Source: an uncultured virus (IMG/VR IMGVR_UViG_3300030118_002829) (lineage: Duplodnaviria > Heunggongvirae > Uroviricota > Caudoviricetes). Taken from it: 32,290 nt of DNA. The notes under the pieces are model-generated. The model was not told the DNA's origin, made no database searches, and saw only the letters and a list, made by a program, of their open reading frames with translations. Location of the stretch: positions 62,001 through 94,290 of IMG/VR virus record IMGVR_UViG_3300030118_002829. One strand, given 5' to 3'. Both the position numbers and the translations under genes were made by a program. The number at the start of each line of letters is the position of its first letter. The stretch's first letter is position 1. Below are positions 8,323 through 31,960 of the stretch, piece by piece.

Positions 8323-9615
8323 ATGAATTACAATAACAGACTAAGAAGCGAAATACTAGCAAGAGGAGGAGAGTTTATTGCCACAGGTAATCTTATTCAC
8401 GATATGGTGAGTAAGAAGTGGGATAATCCTACAGGAGCATTCAACATAGCATTGAAGAATAATCTTGTTGAAATGTCCGTTGCTGATGATTGGAAAGAAG
8501 CGAGAAAGGAATGGAAAGCAACAGGGAATGTTTGGTATATTCCTTTAGCCGATGATGCTACTGAGGTTCTACCCGAACCACATAGAAGTAGCCATCCTCA
8601 TTACTGTGTTTGTGGCCATCCAATTGCTTGGCACTTTGAAATCGAAAATACAGAAAACGGTAGAGTAGAAGTTGTTGGTAGTGAACATATTGGATTTTGG
8701 ATGATTGTCAGACACTTAGTAGAAAATCTAGAAATGGACCCCGAAGAAGTTACTCAAGAAAGAGTCCAAGAGTGGGTCAAAGAATCTATCAAATCTATGA
8801 AAGCCGAATGGTGGTGGAGTCAATACGGAGAGGAATTTGAAGAATGGTTTACTGCTATCAGAGAACAAGATTTAATTCTCAATGTAAGAGATGGTCCTCA
8901 ATATTATGATAACGATACTAGAAGATATGAATACAAGAAATTGATTCGTAAGAAAGGTGTAGGAACGAGAGGAACCAATGACTTCCAAATGCCTTCTATT
9001 GTTTGGAGATGGAACCATCCCGATAACGATAAGACGGCTCAGATAAACACGACAGGTTATCCTAATCGTGATTTGTGGAATGACCTACAAATGTTCTACT
9101 TTAATCTAGATAAGCACAATGCTAAGATTGCGGAGATGCATCAAGAGAGACAAGATAGAATCGAACAAGTCATTGAAGAAAGGAGACTTGCAGACGAAGC
9201 ACAGGCTCAAAGAGAAAGGGAACAAAGAGCAAGGGCTGAAGCAAGAGCCGAAAGGATTCGTCTAGAAAGAATCGAACAACAGAGACTTCTTGATACTGCC
9301 TTTGAAAGAACATGTTCTGAATGGGGTATTGTTCAATTCTCAGCCGAAGATGGTAGAGATGATTGGGAACAAGATTTCCTACTAAAGATGATTGGCAAGA
9401 TTAATTCTATGGCTTACATTTCTGAGAAGCAAAAGCAAAGAGTCATCAAGATTATCAATCGTGAAGATGAACCTGCTACTGAAAAACAACTTGCTTACAT
9501 TCGTGCTTTAGGAGGAGAACCAAACCCTAATCTAACTAAGAGAAAAGCGAGTGATATGATTGACCAATTGAAAAATCCTCAAAATTCTGTTCTTGCAGGA
9601 GAGGAGGAGGAATGA
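8323..9615 (+). CDS. large hypothetical protein with metal-binding motif, coiled coil and C-terminal ATEKQ helical motif
   Basis: HYCVCGHPI...VGSEHI; PATEKQLAYI...LTKRKASDMIDQL. Confidence 0.85.
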   Translation: MNYNNRLRSEILARGGEFIATGNLIHDMVSKKWDNPTGAFNIALKNNLVEMSVADDWKEARKEWKATGNVWYIPLADDATEVLPEPHRSSHPHYCVCGHPIAWHFEIENTENGRVEVVGSEHIGFWMIVRHLVENLEMDPEEVTQERVQEWVKESIKSMKAEWWWSQYGEEFEEWFTAIREQDLILNVRDGPQYYDNDTRRYEYKKLIRKKGVGTRGTNDFQMPSIVWRWNHPDNDKTAQINTTGYPNRDLWNDLQMFYFNLDKHNAKIAEMHQERQDRIEQVIEERRLADEAQAQREREQRARAEARAERIRLERIEQQRLLDTAFERTCSEWGIVQFSAEDGRDDWEQDFLLKMIGKINSMAYISEKQKQRVIKIINREDEPATEKQLAYIRALGGEPNPNLTKRKASDMIDQLKNPQNSVLAGEEEE

Positions 9616-9917: not shown

Positions 9918-10121
9918 ATGAAACTAAGAATTTTGAACGAAACAGGACACACCGAACTTTCAGTAGCGGCTAGTGAAATCGTAGACCACATTAACGAACA
10001 CGCAACTCATTGGGTCTTCGTAGATGGTGAGATGATTAGCAGAAGTGACATTAACGCAGTTAATTGGGATGATGTTTCTGATGTTGAACTAGTTCCTGCC
10101 ATTGTCGGTGGAAACTGTTAG
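9918..10121 (+). CDS. ubiquitin-like beta-grasp protein (ThiS/MoaD/SAMP-like) with GG-NC tail
   Basis: 67 aa; VFVDGE and DVELVPAIVGG signatures of ThiS/MoaD/SAMP; AGGAG RBS. Confidence 0.85.
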   Translation: MKLRILNETGHTELSVAASEIVDHINEHATHWVFVDGEMISRSDINAVNWDDVSDVELVPAIVGGNC

Positions 10122-10147
10122 ACGGAAATAATATTCCGCATTCGCTT

Positions 10148-10258
10148 TCTTTGGCGGATTGTGGTGCCTAAAGGCGTAAGTCCTGACGGGGTAACACAGG
10201 CTTAATCGAGATTGAATACAAGTGCGTAGCCTATCTCTCGGCCACAATCTGCTAGAGA
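10148..10258 (+). ncRNA. candidate multi-branch structured RNA
   Basis: 17 bp closing stem 10148-10164/10242-10258 (three G-U pairs) enclosing three hairpins; GC-richer than flanks. Confidence 0.45.
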
Positions 10259-10436
10259 TTTGAGATTACAATTTACAAAATCGAAAATGTTCCAAGGTGA
10301 GAACATTTTTCATAACACAGAAGGGCATAGTCGTAGTCCTTCACTATTTGACCGTTAAACTTCATATAGTGAAAATTCATGACAAGAAATACCTGTCTTC
10401 GTTTGTCCGAAACGGGTGATTATGGAGGTTTTAACA

Positions 10437-12320
10437 ATGAATAAAGCAAGTGAAATAATGAGTGAAATTACAGTGCATATGAAATACGCTAGGTATCTAT
10501 CTACTTTGAATAGGAGAGAAACTTGGGATGAGTTAGTAACAAGAAATTACAATATGCACGATGAAAAAATAAAGAATTTAGATACTGTTGATGCTGATAA
10601 AGAGACATTGAAGAAATGGTTAGATGATTCTTATCAACTGGTGTATGCTAAGAAAGTATTACCATCAATGAGGAGTTTACAATTTGCGGGAAAGCCTATC
10701 GCTTTAAGCCCTAATAGAATGTATAATTGTGCATATATGCCAATTGATAATATTGCGGCTTTTCCCGAAGCAATGTTCCTTTTACTTGGAGGCACTGGTG
10801 TAGGTTACTCAGTGCAAAAACACCATGTTGCGGAATTGCCACCCATTTTTCAACCAATTAAGAAAACAAAAAGATGGAAGATTGGAGACTCAATAGAGGG
10901 ATGGGCTGATGCGATAAAAGCATTGATGAAATCATATACCAAAGCAGGTAGTAGGACTATCGTTTTCGATTACTCAGATATTAGACCGAAAGGAGCAAGA
11001 CTAGTTACTAGTGGAGGTAAAGCACCTTCCTCTGCCCCATTGGAACAATGCCTAGTAAAGATAAAACACATATTGAGTGATAAGCCAATGGGTAGTAAAT
11101 TATCTACCATCGAGGTTCATGATATTCTTTGTCATATTGCTGATGCGGTATTGGCAGGTGGTATTCGTAGGGCCGCTTTGATTTCTCTATTCAGTGCTGA
11201 TGATGATAAAATGATTGCTTGTAAATCGGGCAATTGGTGGGAGTTAAATCCACAAAGAGGTAGAGCAAATAACTCAGCCGTATTACTTAGACACAGAATC
11301 ACTAAAGATTACTTTATGGATTTGTGGAAAAGAATTGAGTTGAGTGGAGCAGGTGAACCTGCGGTTTATCTTTCAAATGACAAAGATTGGGGAACCAATC
11401 CTTGTTGTGAGATTGCGCTTAGACCATTTCAATTTTGTAATCTAACTGAGGTAAATGTTAGTAACATTACATCTCAAGAGGATTTGAATATTAGAGTCCA
11501 AGCGGCTTCGTTTATTGGAACATTACAAGCGAGTTATACTGACTTCCATTATCTTAGAGATATATGGAGAGAGACAACTGAAAAGGATGCGCTTATTGGC
11601 GTATCAATGACAGGTATCGGCTCTAACAAGTTAGAGGATATGGACTTACAAGAAGCGACAGATATTGTTGTTAATACTAATCAGATGGTTGCTGACCTTC
11701 TAGGAATAAACCATGCGGCTAGAACAACTTGTGTTAAACCTGCGGGAACCACATCATTAGTTGTAGGAACATCTAGTGGTATTCACGCTTACCATAATGA
11801 TTACTACATTCGTAGAATCAGAGTAGGAAAGAATGAAGCAATTTACAGTTATCTTATTGATAACCATCCCGAAATGCTTGAGGATGATTATTTTAATCCT
11901 ACAACCCAAGCAGTTATTTCAGTCCCACAGAAGGCTCCTAAAGGGGCTATTCTGAGAACCGAATCTCCAATTGATTTGCTGAATCGTGTGAAACATGTCT
12001 CTGAAAACTGGGTAAAAACAGGACACAACAACGGGCAGAATACACATAATGTTTCAGCAACGGTATCTATTAAGAAAGATGAATGGGAGACAGTCGGTAA
12101 ATGGATGTGGGATAACAAAGAATCCTATAATGGATTATCGGTTTTACCTTATGATGGTGGAACATATGTTCAAGCACCATTTGAAGATTGCACCGAGTAT
12201 AAATACAAAAAGATGATGAAGACATTATCTGAAGTAGACCTCACTAAAGTTATTGAGTGGGATGACAACACTAACCTTACAGGAGAACTTGCGTGTGCAG
12301 GTGGACAGTGTGAGATATGA
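10437..12320 (+). CDS. nrdJ: class II (adenosylcobalamin-dependent) ribonucleotide reductase
   Basis: KYAR..RRETW, PSMR, YNC, GGIRRAA, GTNPCCEI, TCVKPAGT, C-terminal ACAGGQCEI; start set at ATG 10437 after GGAGG. Confidence 0.95.
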   Translation: MNKASEIMSEITVHMKYARYLSTLNRRETWDELVTRNYNMHDEKIKNLDTVDADKETLKKWLDDSYQLVYAKKVLPSMRSLQFAGKPIALSPNRMYNCAYMPIDNIAAFPEAMFLLLGGTGVGYSVQKHHVAELPPIFQPIKKTKRWKIGDSIEGWADAIKALMKSYTKAGSRTIVFDYSDIRPKGARLVTSGGKAPSSAPLEQCLVKIKHILSDKPMGSKLSTIEVHDILCHIADAVLAGGIRRAALISLFSADDDKMIACKSGNWWELNPQRGRANNSAVLLRHRITKDYFMDLWKRIELSGAGEPAVYLSNDKDWGTNPCCEIALRPFQFCNLTEVNVSNITSQEDLNIRVQAASFIGTLQASYTDFHYLRDIWRETTEKDALIGVSMTGIGSNKLEDMDLQEATDIVVNTNQMVADLLGINHAARTTCVKPAGTTSLVVGTSSGIHAYHNDYYIRRIRVGKNEAIYSYLIDNHPEMLEDDYFNPTTQAVISVPQKAPKGAILRTESPIDLLNRVKHVSENWVKTGHNNGQNTHNVSATVSIKKDEWETVGKWMWDNKESYNGLSVLPYDGGTYVQAPFEDCTEYKYKKMMKTLSEVDLTKVIEWDDNTNLTGELACAGGQCEI

Positions 12321-12625
12321 CAATTTTCAAAGATATATATGAATTAAAAATGTGCGTTCTTGAAATGGAAGAATATTTCCCAAACGAGTATCATTCCATT
12401 TTAGGAGAAATAGAAAGAATAAAACAATTAGACTTAGACGACAAGACTAAACAGAATATCTGTAATGGTGAATTAAGGAAAGTCCTAATAAAGAATAAAG
12501 TAACCCCTAGTTATAAGATAGTTGAATGGCTCTCAGAGAGGAGAGAAGAATACTTAGATAGACTGGCTTATTTCCAGAGGGAAAATGAATGGAAGAAGAA
12601 GAAACTCACTTCAAATACCGATTAA
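12317..12625 (+). CDS. hypothetical protein
   Basis: 102 aa, ATGA overlap. Confidence 0.7.
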   Translation: MTIFKDIYELKMCVLEMEEYFPNEYHSILGEIERIKQLDLDDKTKQNICNGELRKVLIKNKVTPSYKIVEWLSERREEYLDRLAYFQRENEWKKKKLTSNTD

Positions 12626-12768
12626 GCATTTGTAAAGCGAATGGTAGCGTATGGATGGAGGAGTTTGATAATATAACTTCCATATTAGAAGAAATAAAAG
12701 GGCTACTTCTTAAACATCCACACCTTGTTGTCTCTAGACAAAAGGTAGTTGATAGAAATGAAAGATAA
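12589..12768 (+). CDS. 59 aa hypothetical protein (MEEEETHFKYRLSICKANGSVWMEEF...)
   Basis: Manual translation, fills gap in the operon, GAGG upstream. Confidence 0.6.
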   Translation: MEEEETHFKYRLSICKANGSVWMEEFDNITSILEEIKGLLLKHPHLVVSRQKVVDRNER

Positions 12769-12910
12769 CCCCGATTATACAAAAGACAGAAAAGGAAATT
12801 CGATAGCAACTCGTTGTCGAATATGCGGTGGTCAATTGACACACCCAAATGAAATAAAAGCCGAAATGCACGATAGATGTGTTAAGGCTTACAAGAGCAA
12901 AATAAGGTGA
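12758..12910 (+). CDS. 50 aa zinc-finger protein
   Basis: RCRICGGQLTHP...HDRC; GTGA overlap with next gene. Confidence 0.7.
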   Translation: MKDNPDYTKDRKGNSIATRCRICGGQLTHPNEIKAEMHDRCVKAYKSKIR

Positions 12911-14166
12911 TTAAGATGCCCGAACTATTATTACAAAGAGCAGACGACTCAGGAAAATACGATTCTACATTAGTTAGATTTCAAGGAGAGACTACATATA
13001 CATCTGTAACGCTTTATCCAAGACAATATCGTAATACAAATAATCCAATGATGGAAGCGATAAAGAATTGGCTAACAGGTAAATTACAGATTAGTAGGAG
13101 AAATCTCTACAGGAAATCTTGGTATAATAATACCAATAACTCTAGGGGATATTATACTCCTAGAGCATCAGAAGAAGAAAAGGAACAACCCAAAGCCGTA
13201 GAGTTTTCCCATGTCATTACTATTGGTGAAGAAGGATTCATGGTTTATTTCAACAAGAAAGGAACAAGATATTTCATCAATGGTATCATGGGTAATAAGT
13301 CAGTATTGATTGCGGCATTAGCGAGAACAATATTCAAATCGTGTTTTACAGATGATGCTATCGAGTTAGAAAACTTCTTGATTAAACATATTCAATTGCC
13401 CGAAAATGTATTTTATGCAATTGAGAATCGTGCGCCTTATTATTTCCATCTAGATAGAGGAGATGGTCAATCAGCAAAGAGAATCGAATGTAGATTGAAA
13501 GTTAGACTGATTGCCGACAATAAGGTAGCAATTGAAGTATCGGATGGTATTTGGGGAGAGATGACTGTAAGGCAAATGAATACTTACATGAATACTTATC
13601 TCAAAAAGAAAAGACAGGGGACTTGGGCTAATCTAAGTCCGTCTGAGTTATGGGAGAAAGTAATGAAAAGATACCCGACAGAAAGTGAAGAACACTTGAT
13701 GGTTGCTTTCCTTCATCAAAATAGAACATCTAAAGTTGTTAAAGAAAGAGCAAGAGATTTGATGGTTCACATGGAATCTCGTTATCCCGACAGAATCAAG
13801 ATTAATTGGGGTTCACCCGATAAAATGTTAGATGTTTCAGAGAAGCCTACTATCATGTATGTGCATGGTAAATGTGCTGATTGGAAACTAACTGATAGAG
13901 GATTAAAATCTCAAGGGCAACAGAATGTCTCTACTTTCGTTTATGTTTGTGATACAGACGGTTCAAACGGAACATGGCAAGGCCCAATTTGTGTAGATAA
14001 CTTAGATAACAAATCACCGACAGGCGACCAATTTGTTACAAGAGCATTGGGATTATTGAATGATAATCTGTTGGTCGAAAGGGTATCAACTATCAAGGGA
14101 AGATTAAATAGTAGACATAAAGTAGGTCAGACCGACCAAAGAATTTCGCTTTTCCAGCAGGAATAG
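12907..14166 (+). CDS. 419 aa hypothetical protein; C-terminal GPICVDNL resembles the E2 active-site motif
   Basis: Long ORF (start may be ATG 12916); E2 similarity limited to a short motif. Confidence 0.8.
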   Translation: MIKMPELLLQRADDSGKYDSTLVRFQGETTYTSVTLYPRQYRNTNNPMMEAIKNWLTGKLQISRRNLYRKSWYNNTNNSRGYYTPRASEEEKEQPKAVEFSHVITIGEEGFMVYFNKKGTRYFINGIMGNKSVLIAALARTIFKSCFTDDAIELENFLIKHIQLPENVFYAIENRAPYYFHLDRGDGQSAKRIECRLKVRLIADNKVAIEVSDGIWGEMTVRQMNTYMNTYLKKKRQGTWANLSPSELWEKVMKRYPTESEEHLMVAFLHQNRTSKVVKERARDLMVHMESRYPDRIKINWGSPDKMLDVSEKPTIMYVHGKCADWKLTDRGLKSQGQQNVSTFVYVCDTDGSNGTWQGPICVDNLDNKSPTGDQFVTRALGLLNDNLLVERVSTIKGRLNSRHKVGQTDQRISLFQQE

Positions 14167-14200
14167 AGAAAAGAAACGGTCATCCTACGGGGTGACAAAA

Positions 14201-15067
14201 ATGAAATGCAAAGAATGTAATGGTAAAATCGTAGATATTGACGGAGAATTATCTTGTGAAGTATGTGGTGTTGTTCATAGTATATCTTTAGAGCCACCAA
14301 GACCTCAAGCCATCAAAAATCAAAACTCTCATGAGTTTCTTAATCATGAAAATGATAATGCCTATGGTTTAGGTAGTATCATTGGTCCCGAAAATTTCAA
14401 GGGAGCATCAAGATTGAGAAGATTGGCTAGTAGACAAAGTGGAGAGGATAGAAAAATGAAAAAAGCCATGTTTTTCATAAATATCGTCAAATCTGAATTT
14501 GGATTACAAAACTCTGCCAAATTAGATATGAGGAATTATTATTCTACTTTATCATCTAAGGGAATTTTCACTTCTAAAATGTCCTATGAAGAAAGGGCGG
14601 CTTCTATTGGTTATATTACAATCAAGGAATATGGTTATGGCTATACTCTCAAAGAAATGTGTAAAACATTAGATGTTCCTATGAAAAGAGTAGGAAGAAA
14701 TGCTAGATTGTATGCTAGACATTTAGGTAAGTCTCATGTTTTTGCTATGGCCAATCCCGAAGGGATGATTGAAAAGTATTGTTCAAGGATTACCGAGAAT
14801 AGAAAGTTTATGAATGATATTCTCAATATGTATCACTATCTAGATAATATAGTTAGTAGCCATCCTTCAACCCATTACTTAGCAGGTATTACTTATTTTG
14901 TCGAAGGACTAAAGATGCAAAAGGAACATACGAGAAAACAAATCGCTGAAGCATTTGAAACAAATCCTAGAAGAATAACGGAAGTCATTAAAAGAATAAA
15001 GAATATGCTAAATATCAAAGATACTTTTGGTTTAACAGTTGAAGATATATTGGAGGGAGTTAGATGA
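14201..15067 (+). CDS. tfb: transcription initiation factor IIB (TFB)-like protein
   Basis: N-terminal CKEC-x13-CEVCG Zn ribbon, GLGSII linker, two helical cyclin-like repeats (TLKEMC, TRKQIAEAF). Confidence 0.8.
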   Translation: MKCKECNGKIVDIDGELSCEVCGVVHSISLEPPRPQAIKNQNSHEFLNHENDNAYGLGSIIGPENFKGASRLRRLASRQSGEDRKMKKAMFFINIVKSEFGLQNSAKLDMRNYYSTLSSKGIFTSKMSYEERAASIGYITIKEYGYGYTLKEMCKTLDVPMKRVGRNARLYARHLGKSHVFAMANPEGMIEKYCSRITENRKFMNDILNMYHYLDNIVSSHPSTHYLAGITYFVEGLKMQKEHTRKQIAEAFETNPRRITEVIKRIKNMLNIKDTFGLTVEDILEGVR

Positions 15068-15348
15068 ATTACATGTTAATAATCAATGATGAATTATCAG
15101 AATGGGCTAATCAAATACATAACCCCAAGGTGATAGCGAGTCTAATAATTTTAGAGGATGTATCAGCGTCATATAAAATTATGAATCATTATTATAAACA
15201 AGGATGGAATGTTTTACCTAATAATACAGTAAAAGTATTTCCAAGTTTAATTAATCTAAAGATTAAACATCCACAAACGGATGTTATTGAAGGTAAACTA
15301 AACATAGAAGAATTTCTGTATATGCTAGAATTGATGGAGGAGTATTGA
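15064..15348 (+). CDS. hypothetical protein
   Basis: 94 aa, coupled. Confidence 0.7.
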   Translation: MNYMLIINDELSEWANQIHNPKVIASLIILEDVSASYKIMNHYYKQGWNVLPNNTVKVFPSLINLKIKHPQTDVIEGKLNIEEFLYMLELMEEY

Positions 15349-15470
15349 TGAAAATATTAATTGTAATCATACTCATGATAGGGTTGTATATCTTAGGTAA
15401 ATTCCTTTATCCCGATATACCACAAAGACCTATCCAACAAGAATTAATTAAATGGGAGGAGGAACAATGA
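15348..15470 (+). CDS. 40 aa single-pass membrane protein (MKILIVIILMIGLYILGKFLYPD...)
   Basis: TGATG overlap, GGAGGAG RBS, hydrophobic N-terminus. Confidence 0.65.
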   Translation: MKILIVIILMIGLYILGKFLYPDIPQRPIQQELIKWEEEQ

Positions 15471-15709
15471 GAGCAAAAAGCACTATTCATGTAGAATACG
15501 AAGTATGTAGAGCGATACTAGAATCACCCGAATTGGCAGTAGTAATAGGTCAAGTCAAATCAAGGTTAGTCCCTATGGGAGATGATGTTGCAGAAAAAAG
15601 ATTCAATGTGGGAACAAAGAGTTTATCACAACTCTTACAGAATATAGTTGATAGAAGATTACATCGAATACCTAAAGACCATCCCGATTACACACCAAAG
15701 GGTGATTAG
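15467..15709 (+). CDS. hypothetical protein (MRAKSTIH...)
   Basis: Start reassigned to ATG 15467 after GGAGGAGG. Confidence 0.75.
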   Translation: MRAKSTIHVEYEVCRAILESPELAVVIGQVKSRLVPMGDDVAEKRFNVGTKSLSQLLQNIVDRRLHRIPKDHPDYTPKGD

Positions 15710-16024
15710 ATGGATAAAGAGGACTTAGGTTCTCTTAGGAAAGAATGGAATGAAACTGTGAGAGCAAAAATGCTCAGAGAGATATTCCCTAATGCTCCTA
15801 AGAGAAGTAAATGTAGGATATGTAAAGTCTCTTATCCTAACTCGATATTGAACGGTAGTAGCATTGCTCATTCAATGTGTCCCGAATGTATCAATGCAAG
15901 AATAGGAAATAAGAGACTAAAGAAAATGAAAGAAAAGCCCAACAAAGTTATTGAGGCTAAACCAATGGAAATCAAAGAAGAAGATTTGATGACATTGAAA
16001 GAATATTTGGAGATGAAAATATGA
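15710..16024 (+). CDS. zinc-finger protein
   Basis: CRIC...CPEC. Confidence 0.75.
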   Translation: MDKEDLGSLRKEWNETVRAKMLREIFPNAPKRSKCRICKVSYPNSILNGSSIAHSMCPECINARIGNKRLKKMKEKPNKVIEAKPMEIKEEDLMTLKEYLEMKI

Positions 16025-16299
16025 CATTTGGATATAATGATGGAACGATAGAATGCGCCATGTGTGGTTGCAAGATGAAAGAATGGGAGAGTAATAATCC
16101 TCAACCTCTATTATCTGATTTTGAAGATAGGGTATGTAGAGATTGTAACGATTATGTTACTGCCTCTAGGATTATCCTTAGAGGTATGGATGAAGAAACG
16201 CTAAGACATACTTGTAATATTATTGTAGGTATTATTAGTATGGCTTCGGGATTAAAAAGAAGTCGAGAACATTGGCTAAAGAAAATGGAGGAGGAATGA
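16021..16299 (+). CDS. zinc-finger protein
   Basis: CAMC...NNPQPL...CRDCN. Confidence 0.75.
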   Translation: MTFGYNDGTIECAMCGCKMKEWESNNPQPLLSDFEDRVCRDCNDYVTASRIILRGMDEETLRHTCNIIVGIISMASGLKRSREHWLKKMEEE

Positions 16300-16559
16300 A
16301 TATGGTTAGTAGAGAAGAATGGATAAGAAAAGCAGAAGCCGTTGGTAGATTCGGTTCAAATGCCGCAACATCAGAAAAAGGAGCATACGAGGGTATGCCG
16401 TTATTGTATCAAGCACTAGGATGCTTTGATAACTTTGATGATTCTCATCGTAAGGCCGTGTTATCATTAGTAACACAATGGGCTAATCGAGAAGGCACAG
16501 GACTATGGAGTTTAGTAACAGATATGCGTGTTGCACACAATAAAGCAAAGGAGGAATAA
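16296..16559 (+). CDS. hypothetical protein
   Basis: ATGA overlap at 16296 after GGAGGAGG (ORF track start 16272). Confidence 0.7.
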   Translation: MNMVSREEWIRKAEAVGRFGSNAATSEKGAYEGMPLLYQALGCFDNFDDSHRKAVLSLVTQWANREGTGLWSLVTDMRVAHNKAKEE

Positions 16560-16561
16560 AT

Positions 16562-17125
16562 ATGAAAAGAAAAGTAATGATTATAGGAACAGGTGGAATT
16601 GGAAGTTTTCTAATCCCTCTTTTAGATAAGACGGGATTGTATAAGATTACGGCACATGACCCCGATATTGTAGAAAAGAAGAATATACCTTATCAGAATT
16701 TTGAATTAAACGAGATTGATGATAAGAAAGTATTTGCTATGAAGAATAGATACAAGTCAGTGGCTAAGGCTGAACCTTTTTTGGTTCTAACAGAAAAACA
16801 AATTCAAGGTTATGACTTAGTTATCTGTTGTGCGGATAATTTAGATGTAAGAAGGCTACTTTATAGGTCATCAGTTAAATGGTTAGACTTGAGAGCGCAA
16901 GGTCGTAATGGTGCTTACATTAGTTATCTAACGCCTAAGAACATGTATGATGTTGTGCTTGCAGGACCCGATGGAAGTTTTTCATGTCAAGGAGATAGTT
17001 GGAAAGGCAAGAAAGAAGGTTTGCACTTTACTCATGTAGCAATAGCAGGTATGGCGGCTGAATGGATGCAAAGATGGTTTGTTGATGAGAATGATGTTTC
17101 AGATTACAAAGTGGTGAATATTTAA
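16562..17125 (+). CDS. ThiF/MoeB/E1-like Ubl-activating enzyme
   Basis: IIGTGGIGS, DPDIVEKKN, YDLVICCADNLDVRR, WLDLR. Confidence 0.9.
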   Translation: MKRKVMIIGTGGIGSFLIPLLDKTGLYKITAHDPDIVEKKNIPYQNFELNEIDDKKVFAMKNRYKSVAKAEPFLVLTEKQIQGYDLVICCADNLDVRRLLYRSSVKWLDLRAQGRNGAYISYLTPKNMYDVVLAGPDGSFSCQGDSWKGKKEGLHFTHVAIAGMAAEWMQRWFVDENDVSDYKVVNI

Positions 17126-17661
17126 TGGATACTAATCAATTAGTAGAGGATTACCTAAAGAATACTCCCCATTATACAAATTCAGAAGATATTGTTGTCT
17201 TGACTGATTGGAAAGAAAGAATAGAATGGTCCTTTGACCATCCAAAGAAAGCATCGGGATTACTGTCAATCTTCCAAGAGAAAAGAGGTGTTTTCCTTGA
17301 AACTATTTGGCAGATGAGTATGACTGCTTTTGATAAACCAAGAGAAGTCCAAGTGGTGATAGACAATAACGATAAGTTGTTTATTTCTTTTGGGACATTT
17401 TCATTTGTTGAATTTATGGAAGACCCTGTTGGAATGAAGTTGCCGATTAAATGTTGGATACATACTCATCCTTTCGGTTCAGCGTATTTCAGTGGAACAG
17501 ATATGAAAACAATCAACACATGGAAACCTATCATGATTAGTGCTATCGTTTTAGGAGATGGAGAACATCAAACTTGGATGAACACTTCTTCCAATAAAGC
17601 GACACATTATACTTATGCCAAGAAAAGGCTAGTAGAATTAAATGGAGGAGAAGAAGAATGA
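17125..17661 (+). CDS. JAB/JAMM (MPN+) metalloprotease
   Basis: E (REVQV) ... HTHPFGSAYFSGTD = HxH-x7-S-x2-D; TAATG coupling to the E1 gene. Confidence 0.9.
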   Translation: MDTNQLVEDYLKNTPHYTNSEDIVVLTDWKERIEWSFDHPKKASGLLSIFQEKRGVFLETIWQMSMTAFDKPREVQVVIDNNDKLFISFGTFSFVEFMEDPVGMKLPIKCWIHTHPFGSAYFSGTDMKTINTWKPIMISAIVLGDGEHQTWMNTSSNKATHYTYAKKRLVELNGGEEE

Positions 17662-17888
17662 AGTTAGAAGCAATAGGAGAATTTGTAGTATTGAAAGAAT
17701 CAGAATCAAAGGTTGGTTCATTTGTAATGAGTGAAACCCACAAGGGAGAAGTTGTCTCCGTTGGTCCTGATGTAGAAGGAATAGATGTTGGTGATGAGAT
17801 TTATTATCAACCGAATAAGAAGATTAAACTCGGTGAATTTTTCGCAGTTCACAAACATGTAATTTGTAGTAAGGTGGTGAAGGAATGA
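17658..17888 (+). CDS. groES: co-chaperonin GroES
   Basis: GEVVSVGPDV..VGDEI; directly upstream of GroEL. Confidence 0.85.
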   Translation: MKLEAIGEFVVLKESESKVGSFVMSETHKGEVVSVGPDVEGIDVGDEIYYQPNKKIKLGEFFAVHKHVICSKVVKE

Positions 17889-30104: not shown

Positions 30105-30296
30105 ATGACAATCTATATAGATGAAGAATGCGATATTTGCGGATTAAAGATGAAGGAAAATGTTGTAGGGATTCATTATCATAATGTATGTGTTGGTTGT
30201 TTAGAAACTTTGGTAAAAAACGCAGTTCACTTTCAGAAATTCATTAAAGGTAGAAAAATGCTTGGTCAAATATATGATAAGGAGATGAAAAAATGA
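30105..30296 (+). CDS. zinc-finger microprotein
   Basis: CDIC...CVGC. Confidence 0.7.
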   Translation: MTIYIDEECDICGLKMKENVVGIHYHNVCVGCLETLVKNAVHFQKFIKGRKMLGQIYDKEMKK

Positions 30297-31960
30297 TTAT
30301 CAGTTATATAGAATCAGATAAGACTATCAAGATTAGATGGAGGGATGAGAATAGAGAAAGAAAGGAGAAGTCTATTGAAGGTTTTAATCCTTATTTCTTT
30401 ATTCGTTCAACGGATAAAAGACCTGAAACTTACAAAACATCTCATAAGATTATAGGTGGTAAGTCAATAAAGCAAACTGGATTCTATGAATACAAAACTG
30501 GTGATTACAAAAACCTTCAAGGACAATCTTTGACTAAGGTTTTCTATTCTCACCCTAAAGATAAATACAATGCAATAAAGCCTTTTGTCGCTACATGGGA
30601 AGGAGATGTTCCTATCTGTCGTAGATATTGCGTAGATGAATTAGAGAATGTCCCCGAATATGAAATGAGAAAATGGTATTGGGATATGGAATGGATGCCT
30701 AAAGGTAGTGAGCATGAAGATGCTATTACTACTATTGCGGTGTATGATAATTACAGTAATCAATCTCAACAATGGGCGTGGTTGCCCGATGCTCCTTCTC
30801 ATTTACATTGGAAACAATCAGATAAGATAGCGATATTTAATAGTGAAAAAGATATGCTTGAAAATTTCGTAAATGTATTACAAGAAGAAGACCCCGATAT
30901 GCTGATTGCTTGGTGGGGATTGAAATCTGATATTCCCCAATTGATTAAAAGATTATTTGCTAACAAGATTGACCCAAGAAAATTATCTCCACATAAGGAA
31001 GTAAAGAATGTAGGATTTAATGCTTTAGGTAGTGTTGAGTATTCTAACATCGAACAACCGATTCGTGGTAGATTATGTCTTAATCTTGACTTAGCATTTG
31101 AAAGACAATGGATGGATGCTCAAAGAGGAACACTACCAAGTAACTCATTAGATTACTGTGCAAGTGTATCTGTTGGAGAAACTAAGAAGAAAGAATCTAA
31201 GTTTACTGATAGGAATGAATTCTTTAATCGAGCATGGCTAGAAGATACTCAAAATTACCTAGAGTATTGTCTTCAAGATGCAGAATTACTACATAAGATA
31301 GATGAAGAAATGGGATTGAGTGAAGGCGTATTGGCAGTTCAAAAGATTGTGAAAGCACCGTTTGAAGATTGTTTCTTCGTTACTATGATAGCCGCACCTT
31401 ATTTCATGAGAAACGCAACATGGAAAGCCCCTACTGGTAAAAAGGGTAGTAAGGAAAAATACGATGGTGCAATGATTTACAATCCGCTAGAAGAAGAAAC
31501 GAATGGATTACATCTAGGCGTTGCCGCTTTTGATTTTAGTTCGCTATATCCGTCAGTTGCCGTAGCAAGGAATATTTCATGGGAAACAAAATCCATTGAA
31601 CCAACCGAGTTTGCAGTCAATATTAGGACTCCAAGAAGTCTCGGAGAAACTATTACTGAGGATTGGAAATATTACAAAACGGATGAATTAGGATTACTAC
31701 CAAGAATGATTCTAACACTAAAGCCTCTTAGAAAACAATACAAGAGTAACATGTTAGAAGCACTACAAGAAGGTAATAAGAAAGAATATGTTAAGTGGAA
31801 TTCAATGCAAATGGCAACCAAGAGACTTTTAGCATCTCTATACGGAGCAACTGCGGCAGTTGGTTTTGGTTGGTATGATTTAGATTTAGCCGCTAGTATT
31901 ACTGCTAGTGCTAGAGAAGCAATTAGAGAAGCCGCATTTAAAGTGAGGGAATTGGAATGA
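30293..31960 (+). CDS. polB: family B DNA polymerase, N-terminal part (exonuclease + motifs A and B; no motif C)
   Basis: ExoI DMEW, ExoIII YCLQD, motif A FDFSSLYPS, motif B KRLLASLYG; stop soon after ITASAREAI. Confidence 0.9.
   Translation: MIISYIESDKTIKIRWRDENRERKEKSIEGFNPYFFIRSTDKRPETYKTSHKIIGGKSIKQTGFYEYKTGDYKNLQGQSLTKVFYSHPKDKYNAIKPFVATWEGDVPICRRYCVDELENVPEYEMRKWYWDMEWMPKGSEHEDAITTIAVYDNYSNQSQQWAWLPDAPSHLHWKQSDKIAIFNSEKDMLENFVNVLQEEDPDMLIAWWGLKSDIPQLIKRLFANKIDPRKLSPHKEVKNVGFNALGSVEYSNIEQPIRGRLCLNLDLAFERQWMDAQRGTLPSNSLDYCASVSVGETKKKESKFTDRNEFFNRAWLEDTQNYLEYCLQDAELLHKIDEEMGLSEGVLAVQKIVKAPFEDCFFVTMIAAPYFMRNATWKAPTGKKGSKEKYDGAMIYNPLEEETNGLHLGVAAFDFSSLYPSVAVARNISWETKSIEPTEFAVNIRTPRSLGETITEDWKYYKTDELGLLPRMILTLKPLRKQYKSNMLEALQEGNKKEYVKWNSMQMATKRLLASLYGATAAVGFGWYDLDLAASITASAREAIREAAFKVRELE

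Follow-up and report, generated by a model that had tools for sequence, protein, structure and literature searches.

Several prokaryotic systems that combine a ubiquitin-like protein (Ubl) with an E1-like enzyme and a JAB/JAMM protease have been described. In type I Bub of bacteria (formerly 6E.1; BubAB, BubCD and BubE), as presented in the relevant sections of its report, a Ubl-E2 pre-protein is cut by a JAB-E1 fusion, and the crossover loop of the E1 is free of cysteine (PMC11601596). The same sections describe Bil (BilABCD), in which a Ubl, a JAB, an E1 and an E2-type cysteine carrier occur without an E3 in a setting of virus-host conflict. Sampylation in archaea (SAMP/UbaA/HvJAMM1) is portrayed, in the passages concerned, as using a beta-grasp modifier with a Gly-Gly (GG) end, one small E1 and a JAMM protease for processing and reversal, with no recognised canonical E2 or E3 (PMC4443979, PMC4895103). 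For bacterial gene neighbourhoods, the pertinent text of Iyer, Burroughs and Aravind (2006) mentions two or three tandem Ubls ‘reminiscent of poly-ubiquitin’, a Ubl at the N-terminus of a ThiF-like E1, and a JAB whose predicted cleavage site is the last Gly (PMC1779556). In archaeal viruses, ThiF/MoeB was listed as an ‘auxiliary metabolic gene’ in the RaFAH paper (PMC8276007), and E1-like genes were reported in Asgard viruses (bioRxiv 10.1101/2021.07.29.454249). The relevant passages of both works indicate that archaeal viruses often have a ThiF-family E1 and suggest a ubiquitin-type link; these passages note only the E1, and mention no viral Ubl, trimming protease or host homologue.

The window analysed here, a stretch of 32,290 nucleotides, makes up the final third of a magrovirus-like genome of 94,290 bases. 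The locus and its host relatives share with sampylation, Bil and the neighbourhoods of Iyer et al. the traits listed above, the cysteine carrier being a candidate in our case. Judged by sequence comparison, the viral system is homologous to a widespread, undescribed system of the host order Poseidoniales (Marine Group II), and this relationship is new. We think that the virus encodes its own Ubl modifier pathway, homologous to the lineage-wide one of Poseidoniales, and that protein conjugation is the best reading of it, one that we hold with some confidence.

Results

Gene layout and conservation in related viruses

A sequence-only reading of the window had placed a 67-aa protein, an E1 and a JAMM protease in a single ubiquitin-like system. 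All three open reading frames (ORFs) are present on the + strand. The Ubl precursor (9918..10121, 67 aa) ends in VPAIVGGNC, the A(I/V)VGG motif being followed by an NC cap. The minimal E1-like adenylating enzyme (16562..17125, 187 aa, Pfam ThiF) and the JAMM/MPN+ metalloprotease, or JAB (17125..17661, 178 aa, full JAMM motif), are coupled as that reading had claimed, with a TAATG junction in which the stop codon of the E1 gene and the start codon of the JAB gene have one base in common. Its placement of groES-groEL also stands: a GroES-like gene and GroEL lie directly downstream, with ATGA overlaps at both the JAB/GroES-like and GroES-like/GroEL junctions. A fourth gene between those of the Ubl and the E1 (12907..14166, + strand) encodes a conserved 419-aa protein, a candidate E2-like carrier with the invariant C-terminal cysteine motif W.GPIC(I/V)DN...GDQ...R...LND. 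The Ubl/E1/JAB set is located inside the replication and expression module, and the tail module is elsewhere in the genome. Thiamine, molybdopterin and tRNA-thiolation families, said to be absent from the window, were found neither in its 42 ORFs nor in the 66 ORFs of the remaining genome, and none of these 108 viral ORFs matched a MoaE, ThiG, rhodanese or cysteine desulfurase family.

The co-occurrence across related viruses that had been proposed as a check was found in 80 related IMG/VR loci searched by tblastn. The E1 is present in all 80 and the JAB in 79, the single miss being a locus whose sequence continues for just 1280 nt past the E1. A Ubl ORF was detected in 53 loci, including 42 of 42 with at least 7905 nt of upstream sequence, and the 27 loci with no Ubl match all have 4593 nt or less upstream. 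The 419-aa protein has a match in 67 of the 80. Direct adjacency of the E1 and JAB genes is confined to the subclade of the window, most relatives having inserts between them. This recurrence of the gene set is more than chance. Conserved synteny within a single viral lineage may reflect inheritance alone, and the host fusions described below are the main basis of the functional link.

The Ubl and the JAMM protease

The AF2 model of the Ubl (pLDDT 84.2) has the topology b-b-a-b-b-a-b. In a Foldseek search of the PDB, all 47 matches listed (ranks 1-50) are ubiquitin or NEDD8 entries with probabilities of 0.84-0.99 and TM values of 0.38-0.50; the best E-value is 1.4e-3, with no match at E<=1e-3. 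The viral protein is thus predicted to be a beta-grasp, with ubiquitin and NEDD8 as its top matches in fold, in line with the earlier assignment. No Pfam, PHROG or NCBIfam family was found for it. Searching with a profile gave E<=1e-3 for at least 150 representatives, tandem repeats and E1 fusions among them; as far as searched, the Ubls are a separate sequence family confined to Poseidoniales and magroviruses. Invariant in a 26-sequence alignment are N7, G10, H11, T12, H28, T30, H31, W32, A61, V63, G64 and G65. AIVGG or AVVGG is kept in 54 of 54 viral copies, and the number of residues after GG varies from 0 to 9: none in four copies, one in three, two in 44, and four, eight and nine in one copy each. 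Read from the alignment, an invariant GG with a variable tail is typical of Ubl precursors that undergo processing. In four of 53 related viruses (L005, L019, L020 and L074), the Ubl already ends in GG and the JAB is still kept, so trimming cannot be the only role of the JAB.

The JAB scores 21.0 bits against Pfam Prok-JAB, under the cut-off of 25. Its JAMM motif (E...HxHx7SxxD) is nevertheless intact, as the sequence-only reading had it: all 14 homologues in the alignment, including one from a host, have E74, H113, H115, S123 and D126. The profile built from this alignment matches the deubiquitinase AMSH-LP (E 7.6e-5) as well as Sst2, STAMBP and Rpn11-like proteins. The JAB is predicted to cut after GG, removing caps and processing poly-Ubls, and possibly also deconjugates. 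Positions 17201-17360 within its gene are identical to a contig of 160 nt from a metatranscriptome library, with DNA carry-over a possible source.

The minimal E1 and the cysteine protein

The viral E1 scores 53.6 bits against Pfam ThiF (PF00899, cut-off 28.1). It begins at the Rossmann strand and has neither the N-terminal helices and C-terminal sheet of MoeB/ThiF nor zinc CxxC pairs, a crossover-loop cysteine or a rhodanese domain. In a 26-sequence alignment the invariant residues are G9xGGxG14, D33, D35, N41, Q45, K56, D92, R97, W107-R111 and S141-C142-Q143, and the nucleotide-binding and Mg residues are intact. In the PDB its profile matches UBA5 (2.8e-10, over positions 5-142), with further matches to Uba1, Uba4, Cap2, MoeB and ThiF. 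The sequence-only reading was right that there is no CxxC pair, and it had singled out the lone cysteine in GSFSC. This residue, C142, is the sole invariant E1 cysteine, and in the alignment with UBA5 it falls on the second cysteine of that enzyme's first zinc CxxC, not on a crossover-loop catalytic cysteine. C142 thus occupies the place of a degenerate zinc-site Cys. With no crossover-loop cysteine and the invariant one at a zinc-site position, an E1~Ubl thioester seems doubtful.

UbaA has its active-site cysteine in the crossover loop, unlike the E1 described here. The locus also departs from sampylation in its scores against the NCBIfam models of UbaA (25.3 bits, cut-off 450) and SAMP1 (21.9 bits, cut-off 60), in the separate canonical E1 that Poseidoniales hosts keep besides the short one, and in the occurrence of poly-Ubl and fusion precursors. 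In contrast to Bil, the E1 is a single 187-aa adenylation domain.

Prediction of the Ubl-E1 complex, another suggested check, gave a weak pass: E1 with ATP and Ubl(1-65) scored 0.46, and the best of three controls 0.01, with at least 97% contact agreement between runs and a partner pLDDT of at least 84. Of 157 solved complexes, 116 reach the mark used, as do 2 of 215 mismatches, and those reaching it at scores of 0.60 or less comprise only 18 of the 157 and both passing mismatches. The prediction is weak support for the pairing, and since solved E1-Ubl complexes exist, the pass may reflect likeness only.

The 419-aa protein has no Pfam family and no PDB sequence match, and none of its 38 homologues carries a Pfam domain. 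In a 29-sequence alignment G359, I361, C362, D364, G373, D374, Q375, R379, N385 and D386 are invariant, the cysteine lying within GPIC(I/V)DN. At motif level, hhalign links the protein weakly to the domain that follows the Ubl in host fusions (probability 12%, E 0.0024, 49 columns).

A homologous system in Poseidoniales

Genomes of the Poseidoniales hosts encode the same three families. Host Ubls occur as tandem poly-Ubls, two- or threefold, with every repeat ending in VGG (P0002, P0005, P0006, P0013, P0019 and others), in front of a Cys-bearing domain, and as Ubl-Ubl-E1 and Ubl-E1 fusions (P0014 and P0045; ThiF 62.7 and 61.5 bits), whose E1 halves are 31-34% identical to the viral E1 (E 1e-17 and 2e-18). 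The short E1 adjoins or is fused with a JAB in 24 of 24 host loci, among them three E1-JAB and two Ubl-Ubl-E1 fusions; six further loci have a single Ubl gene within ~3 kb of the E1-JAB pair, forming Ubl/E1/JAB operons. Among 151 sampled genomes the short E1 is found in 85 and the Ubl in 77; by a hand count from two tables, 75 have both, 10 the E1 only, 2 the Ubl only and 64 neither. A separate canonical E1 of 390-441 aa is also encoded by host genomes. In a quick tree, viral and host E1 sequences form two separate groups (SH-aLRT 88 and 81), so the viral set is old and diverged rather than a recent copy. The host E1-JAB neighbourhood is conserved (TYW1, Dus, FadB-like, GDP-mannose dehydratase and an ABC transporter) and is housekeeping-like, not an obvious defence island.

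Discussion

The analysis establishes the four gene families, their viral conservation and synteny, the predicted Ubl fold, the catalytic motifs, and the fusions and operons that connect Ubl, E1 and JAB in hosts; adenylation, transfer and protein conjugation are inferred, as are a carrier role for the cysteine protein and any targets, whether proteasome, defence or assembly. The 67-aa beta-grasp would be made with a short cap after Gly-Gly, which the JAMM protease would take off; in hosts, poly-Ubl and Ubl-fusion precursors would be further substrates of this protease, cleaved behind every GG. The minimal E1 would then bind the mature Ubl and adenylate its C-terminal glycine using ATP. Since the crossover loop of the E1 is cysteine-free, direct transfer of the activated Ubl is expected: the 419-aa protein, through its invariant cysteine, would most likely be the carrier, or else the Ubl would go straight to a target lysine. 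The JAB could undo the linkage. The virus, which is abundant in the ocean and infects Marine Group II archaea, thus probably tags proteins during infection.

The main rival, which we judge unlikely, is a sulfur carrier: after trimming, and adenylation by the E1, the Ubl would receive sulfur from a persulfide donor of the host and, as a thiocarboxylate, deliver it to a cofactor, metabolite or tRNA, as in MoaD/MoeB and ThiS/ThiF. QbsE/QbsC/QbsD, in which a JAMM enzyme takes off two residues beyond GG, and CysO/Mec+ are sulfur carriers of this kind. An E1 with no crossover-loop cysteine also fits the MoeB type, some host Ubls are marginally similar to ThiS, MoaD and SAMP1 (Pfam ThiS 27.0 bits for P0013, cut-off 22.5, and 22.4 for P0016), and one source names a host Ubl cluster ‘sulfur carrier protein ThiS’. 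In several host genomes TYW1, a tRNA wyosine gene, lies beside the E1-JAB pair, but its orientation differs (co-directional in G002, convergent in G001) and there is therefore no conserved operon link. Against sulfur transfer, the viral ORFs scanned hold no partner of such a pathway, the E1 carries no rhodanese domain, the hosts keep a separate MoeB/UbaA-like E1, and the JAB is retained even where GG is already free. Tandem poly-Ubls and fusions of Ubl with a Cys-bearing domain are more in keeping with a tag that is consumed than with a carrier that is recycled. The host Ubl-Ubl-E1 and E1-JAB fusions and the Ubl/E1/JAB operons, with the predicted beta-grasp, its invariant GG and the missing sulfur partners, uphold the grouping of Ubl, E1 and JAB as one ubiquitin-like system.

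Interference with the host seems quite improbable as the main function. Here host Ubl on viral or host proteins would be removed by the viral JAB, and the viral Ubl and E1 would compete with those of the host; should infection be restricted by the host system, this would be a counter-measure. The prevalence of the homologous system in the host order, the long divergence of the viral E1 group and the description of bacterial Bil and Bub relatives as antiphage in the sections cited (PMC11601596) agree with such a role. The housekeeping-like host neighbourhood does not, and the virus keeps a complete set, more than a deconjugase. We give very little credence to a non-enzymatic role in assembly, with the Ubl as a processed chaperone-like domain and no transferable tag, as proposed for lambda tail I (Ubl) and K (JAB). 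Ubl and JAB do occur in phage tail modules, according to the relevant text of Iyer et al. 2006 (PMC1779556), one host member of the Ubl family (P0015) exceeds the Pfam Lambda_tail_I cut-off (25.7 vs 23.8 bits), and the GroES-like and GroEL genes are immediately downstream. The viral genes are nonetheless away from the tail module, they invariably come with an E1 whose nucleotide-binding and Mg residues are intact, and cellular genomes have the system with no adjoining virion genes.

For protein conjugation, type I Bub, as far as covered by the sections cited, provides a biochemical precedent for this design (PMC11601596). The neighbourhoods of Iyer et al. are bacterial, and those with tandem Ubls also encode a recognisable E2-like domain in the text concerned (PMC1779556). 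Unlike in type I Bub, no DUF6527/BubE family occurs in any viral or host ORF scanned, the Ubl has no Pfam family match, the candidate carrier has an invariant cysteine where BubB is described with a serine, and the system belongs to archaeal hosts and their viruses in a cellular context that is not defence-like. Shared with the type I Bub of those sections (PMC11601596) are a Ubl of one to three beta-grasp domains, a Ubl pre-protein fused ahead of a second component with a JAB/JAMM cut after a conserved Gly, and an E1 that is a minimal adenylation domain with no catalytic crossover-loop cysteine. Peptidase and E1 can share one polypeptide in both, in the order E1-JAB in the hosts studied here and JAB-E1 in Bub.

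Gene organisation of the viral Ubl, E1 and JAB

The viral record is 94,290 bases long and is rated complete by CheckV; bases 62,001-94,290 form the window. Family searches found an archaeal-type replication and expression module in the window, with genes for a class II ribonucleotide reductase, a TFIIB-like protein, PC4, an ATP-dependent DNA ligase, an RFC-like clamp loader, a family B polymerase, GroEL and a tRNA-Arg. The major capsid protein, portal, terminase, prohead protease and tail tube are encoded in the remainder of the genome. Ribonucleotide reductase, GroEL and tRNA-Arg are described as traits of the group B magroviruses of Marine Group II archaea (Philosof et al., PMC5434244).

An ORF check placed the three genes of interest exactly where the sequence-only reading had put them, all on the plus strand: the 67-residue Ubl at 9918-10121, the 187-residue E1 at 16562-17125 and the 178-residue JAB protease at 17125-17661. 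The E1 and JAB genes, described as translationally coupled, overlap by 1 base. Their position directly upstream of groES-groEL also stood: the JAB gene overlaps a GroES-like ORF (76 residues, 17658-17888) by 4 bases, and this ORF in turn overlaps the GroEL gene by 4 bases, coupling it to both. The 76-residue ORF scores 15.0 bits against Pfam Cpn10, below the 21.1 cut-off, matches the PHROG co-chaperonin GroES with an E-value of 0.0031, and in a 10-row profile has 'Chaperonin 11' as its top PDB match (E 0.027). It looks GroES-like from these matches. Philosof et al. (PMC5434244) considered magrovirus chaperonins to function without GroES.

ORFs that end in ...EEE or ...GEEE at the start of the next gene are frequent in the window and in related viruses, for example at 17640-17661, 9598-9615 and 16285-16299. 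These tails are encoded by purine-rich GGAGGAGAAGAA, which resembles a ribosome-binding site serving the coupled gene downstream.

With the E1 as query, 202 relatives were confirmed in IMG/VR, and 80 loci were retained. The three genes co-occur across these viruses, with tblastn matches to the E1 in 80/80 loci, to the JAB in 79/80 and to the Ubl in 53/80. The single JAB-negative locus has 1280 nt of downstream DNA. The Ubl is present in all 42 loci whose upstream DNA is 7905 nt or longer, and the 27 loci without a match all have 4593 nt or less; the median Ubl-to-E1 distance, 5178 nt, is longer than the upstream DNA of every one of them. The E1 and JAB genes are contiguous in the window's subclade only, and 0.5-2 kb of variable genes intervene in other relatives.

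The Ubl C-terminus and fold

Every viral copy of the Ubl carries an A(I/V)VGG terminus, and the GG is invariant in all 54 copies, including that in the window. The residues behind it are freely variable. It is followed by two in 44 copies, by one in 3 and by none in 4; longer tails of four, eight and nine residues occur in one copy apiece. As in Ubl modifiers, the conserved C-terminal Gly-Gly is predicted to be exposed by processing.

The beta-grasp fold that had been assigned to the Ubl was recovered by AlphaFold2 (26-row alignment, pLDDT 84.2, pTM 0.65). The modelled topology is strand-strand-helix-strand-strand-short helix-strand, followed by a disordered tail. In a Foldseek search against the PDB, all 47 matches listed (ranks 1-50) come from ubiquitin or NEDD8 entries, with probabilities of 0.84-0.99. 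Because the best E-value among the matches listed is 1.4e-3 and TM scores are 0.38-0.50, we regard the predicted fold match as qualitatively good and quantitatively modest. Searches of Pfam, PHROGs and NCBIfam gave no family for the viral Ubl, and its profile retrieved nothing from the PDB by sequence below an E-value of 0.48.

A minimal E1 with a Cys-less crossover loop

The E1 scores 53.6 bits against Pfam ThiF (PF00899), over the cut-off of 28.1 (E 2.2e-14), and the E1 parts of host proteins score 42.7-62.7 bits; on these scores we assign it to the ThiF/E1 adenylating superfamily. It extends from the first Rossmann strand to shortly past the helix that follows the crossover loop. In an alignment of 26 E1 sequences, the glycine loop G9xGGxG14, D92-N93 and R97 vary hardly or not at all, and D33, N41, Q45, K56, the WLDLR motif and S141-C142-Q143 are invariant. 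We take D92 to be the Mg-binding Asp. A profile search against the PDB aligned the nucleotide-binding and 'DN'-Arg region with that of UBA5.

The E1 has no CxxC zinc pair, an absence that had been remarked on earlier. The lone Cys in GSFSC that had been singled out with it, C142, is indeed invariant, but in the alignment it falls on UBA5's first zinc motif (...CFAC), at the second Cys, and not in the crossover loop. No Cys is present between residue 143 and the following helix in 26/26 sequences; the E1 therefore lacks the catalytic crossover-loop Cys of the canonical E1s UbaA, UBA5 and Uba1. Because its nucleotide-binding motifs are invariant, its CxxC pairs absent and its crossover loop Cys-less, the E1 looks able to adenylate and unable to form the usual E1 thioester. 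Its scores are far below the NCBIfam equivalog cut-offs for ThiF (45.4 bits vs 275), MoeB (26.3 vs 376) and UbaA (25.3 vs 450), and it has none of the marks of MoeB/ThiF sulfur-carrier adenylyltransferases, namely the CxxC pairs, an equivalog score and partner genes among the 108 viral ORFs scanned.

The closest sequence matches to the E1 in the PDB are 9EGB, 9EGC and 9EGD, for which a full-text search returned no paper. The proposed pairing of E1 and Ubl received a weak pass in complex prediction: E1 with ATP and Ubl residues 1-65 scored 0.46, compared with 0.01 for the best control, a level at which a pass is wrong more often than right unless the pairing is likely beforehand. Solved E1-Ubl complexes exist and may account for this pass.

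The GenBank phage collection contained no close relative of the E1. The best matches there are ThiF-like genes of crAss-like Bacteroides phages (e.g. hit H1), annotated 'thiamine biosynthesis protein', which are 32-34% identical to the first 100-109 residues of the E1, about half of the query.

The JAB protease

The JAB scores 21.0 bits against Pfam Prok-JAB (PF14464), under the cut-off of 25 (E 3.2e-4). The active-site motif of JAMM/MPN+ metalloproteases, which had been described as intact, is complete in it (E...HxHx7SxxD), and E74, H113, H115, S123 and D126 are invariant in 14/14 sequences. In the PDB the JAB profile matches JAMM deubiquitinases: AMSH-LP with an E-value of 7.6e-5, and Sst2, STAMBP and Rpn11-like entries below 0.03. 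All four viruses whose Ubl GG is free retain the JAB.

A related system in Ca. Poseidoniales

A search of 1.84 billion representatives with the Ubl profile retrieved at least 150 proteins at E ≤ 1e-3 and, among the matches listed, 49 at E ≤ 1e-10. Members of these clusters are annotated as hypothetical proteins of Ca. Poseidoniales; their contigs reach 789 kb, and 1.66 Mb in the case of the Ubl-X cluster. The family includes proteins of two or three tandem Ubl copies, each repeat ending in VGG; Ubl-Ubl-E1 and Ubl-E1 fusions, whose E1 part is above the ThiF cut-off; and proteins with the Ubl in front of a domain of 230-310 residues, here called X. The E1 of the host fusions is 31-34% identical to that in the window (E 1e-17 and 2e-18), and both share the WLDLR and SCQ motifs. 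A host Ubl-Ubl-E1 fusion (P0014) used as query found no relative in viral contigs.

Scanning species genomes for the triple Ubl gave 32 loci, 30 of them labelled as archaeal MAGs of Marine Group II/Poseidoniales type and 2 with bacterial labels. At one host locus (L111), a Ubl-Ubl-E1 fusion is followed by a JAB gene, with ordinary cellular genes around; this JAB and its viral counterpart share 38% identity (E 7e-13). We rejected the explanation that the host loci are misbinned viruses, given the cellular neighbours of L111 and of a further locus, L126, and contigs of 37-143 kb.

The short E1 lies directly before the JAB or is fused to it in 24/24 host loci examined. These include three E1-JAB fusions with a single Ubl gene ahead of each, two Ubl-Ubl-E1 fusions and one Ubl-E1-JAB operon. 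Where present, the triple Ubl is on a contig other than that of E1-JAB. In each of four host genomes, one short E1 with a strong match (E 1e-40 to 1e-59) is accompanied by one canonical E1 of 390-441 residues that matches more weakly. Among 151 sampled Poseidoniales genomes, the short E1 was detected in 85 (E ≤ 1e-25) and the Ubl in 77 (E ≤ 1e-5); by hand count, 75 have both, 10 the E1 alone, 2 the Ubl alone and 64 neither, figures that describe a pattern and not independent events because the genomes are incomplete MAGs and related to one another.

In a quick maximum-likelihood tree, rooted at the midpoint only, one branch separates the short E1 domains of the viruses (80) from those of the hosts (24), with SH-aLRT values of 88 and 81, and four canonical host E1s fall outside the short E1 groups (99). 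With the viral and host short E1s split by this one branch, their exchange between virus and host looks old.

An ORF of about 77-99 residues follows the JAB in the 7/7 host loci looked at, for example at L139:5173-5403, L145:3153-3389, L111:11586-11828 and L126:7317-7607. By BLAST, six of the seven belong to two families and the copy in L144 matches none; no Pfam family or viral counterpart was found for these ORFs. One host genome (G105) has the system twice on its contig 1, as diverged copies separated by about 20 kb (174603-175172 and 196413-196979; L140 and L139). One copy consists of a Ubl and an E1-JAB fusion, and the other of a Ubl, a JAB, a 74-residue ORF, a free-standing X and an E1.

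TFIIB-ribbon proteins are neighbours of the system in the virus and in several host loci. The virus encodes one between Ubl and E1 (14192-15067), and several host loci have them immediately downstream of the Ubl/E1/JAB cluster: L145:1922-3001 scores 29.7 bits against a cut-off of 29, and L144:6404-7534 and L138:5485-6576 score more weakly. The similarity between the host neighbours and viral TFB-like genes is weak (E 3e-6 to 5e-4 over about 75 residues). The TFIIB-ribbon protein could be a target or a regulator, or its position a coincidence.

A candidate carrier protein and the host X domain

A 419-residue ORF (12907-14166, plus strand) sits between the Ubl and E1 genes and has a tblastn match in 67/80 loci. 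In an alignment of 29 of 30 rows (L005, with a stop in the reference, was left out), C362 is invariant within a W.GPIC(I/V)DN motif that is followed by GDQ...R...LND. The protein and its profile have no match in Pfam, nor in the PDB at E ≤ 10; its 38 database homologues contain no Pfam domain, and the top score in an atlas look-up was 0.88, under the 0.9 threshold. Because the support comes from position, conservation and the cysteine motif, we treat a carrier role for this protein as a lead.

A Cys in a comparable context, W..IC(L/I), is invariant in the host X domain. This domain occurs fused behind the Ubl and, once, as a gene of its own, between JAB and E1 in L140. X has no match by sequence in Pfam or the PDB and none in the atlas look-up, and its AlphaFold2 model from a 6-row alignment (pLDDT 41) is too poor for use. 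The domains fused behind host Ubls matched none of the window ORFs by BLAST or phmmer. Comparison of the 419-residue family with the X family by hhalign gave a weak match over 49 columns around the Cys (probability 12%, E 0.0024), a lead to a possible relationship that falls short of demonstrating homology.

Discussion

We favour, with moderate confidence, a role of the viral genes in protein conjugation. Hosts encode polyubiquitin-like precursors and Ubl-X pre-proteins, the JAB is kept in viruses although free-GG Ubls need no trimming, a protein with a conserved Cys (419 residues) is encoded nearby, and hosts possess a canonical E1 separately. The main alternative, that the Ubl is purely a sulfur carrier, would agree with an E1 that is Cys-less. 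The bacterial BubCD E1 also has a crossover loop without Cys, yet it supports conjugation (PMC11601596). In favour of sulfur transfer, too, some host members show marginal similarity to ThiS, MoaD and SAMP1, and one is annotated as ThiS in its source. Against ThiS/MoaD (PF02597), P0013 alone among the host members passes (27.0 bits vs 22.5) and P0016 reaches 22.4; a host member scores 21.9 bits against NCBIfam SAMP1, where the cut-off is 60. The viral Ubl itself matches neither PF02597, even at E ≤ 5, nor the SAMP1 equivalog. The TYW1 gene that adjoins the host E1-JAB pair also counts towards a sulfur role; it is co-directional with the pair in one genome and convergent in another. The sequence-only reading had seen no thiamine, molybdopterin or tRNA-thiolation partner in the window, and the search of 108 viral ORFs agrees, with no MoaE, ThiG, rhodanese or like family, which speaks for conjugation. 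We consider a pure sulfur carrier quite improbable.

A more specific form of the conjugation reading, which we put forward tentatively and regard as doubtful in its entirety, is that a two-step cascade of ubiquitin type, so far undescribed for archaea, is common to magroviruses and their Poseidoniales hosts, and that the virus runs a private, orthogonal copy of it. The JAMM protease would cut the polyubiquitin-like precursor, and the minimal Cys-less E1 would pass the Ubl-adenylate straight to the cysteine of the new carrier protein. The viral copy may then retag host or viral proteins early in infection; one possible target is the TFIIB-like factor that virus and host each encode next to the system.

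Among known systems, type I Bub of bacteria is closest in the logic of its design, and archaeal sampylation in its small size and the domain of its hosts; the genes described here reach the curated thresholds of neither. Type I Bub is marked by a Ubl-E2 fusion, a JAB-E1 fusion and the DUF6527 protease BubE. The hosts have Ubl-X and E1-JAB fusions, which may or may not be comparable, and no DUF6527 match was found among the ORFs scanned in the viral genome and host loci. Bacterial tandem Ubl proteins, Ubl-ThiF fusions and JAB partners have already been described (Iyer et al. 2006, PMC1779556), and a ThiF/MoeB gene, of a family linked to ubiquitination, is counted as one of the commonest auxiliary genes in viruses of archaea (RaFAH paper, PMC8276007). 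Our literature search found no published description of the viral Ubl or JAB, or of the hosts' poly-Ubl system. Full-text searches returned no paper for 'magrovirus' with 'ubiquitin', and only one on an unrelated enzyme for 'Poseidoniales' with 'ubiquitin-like'. The words ThiF, JAB and ubiquitin are absent from the main text of those magrovirus papers that were searched, whose supplementary tables may list the ThiF gene. The present analysis adds the poly-Ubl and fusion architectures of the hosts, counts of how often the genes occur together, an anatomy of the E1 and a tree of viral and host E1 domains.

To our knowledge, neither magroviruses nor their hosts have been cultured. If our reading is correct, a complete viral Ubl pathway has a polyubiquitin-like counterpart in over half of the host genomes sampled, which would extend ubiquitin-type signalling to a major archaeal lineage of the ocean. 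It would also be an archaeal case of a virus supplying its own modifier machinery beyond an E1 alone, and would offer a very small E1 (187 residues) and Ubl (65 residues) for studying Ubl transfer from Cys-less E1s. Magroviruses are ranked third in abundance among marine viruses, behind SAR11 phages and cyanophages (Philosof et al., PMC5434244).

Occurrence and other features of the viral genome

Marine metagenome runs from 12 studies contain the stretch; three of these studies are possibly its source. One metatranscriptome library contained four contigs of 160-172 nt identical or nearly so to the window, one of them inside the JAB gene (17201-17360); DNA in the library is possible, and the contigs carry no information on transcript ends. 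Metatranscriptome run X20 covered 6/30 bins, the Ubl not among them, and runs X21 and X22 gave no coverage of the window; the uncovered parts are uninformative.

The family B DNA polymerase is split. The end of the record (window 30293-31960) encodes the exonuclease and the first part of the polymerase domain; the beginning of the record (genome bases 367-1293; L114) encodes a second piece of 309 residues, which matches later polymerase positions. When the record ends are joined, a MazG gene and an 81-residue ORF separate the two pieces. The structural half of the genome also carries a gene for an Arf-like small GTPase (genome bases 34632-35306; L115:15632-16306, minus strand), which scores 22.7 bits against Pfam Arf (cut-off 22.3).
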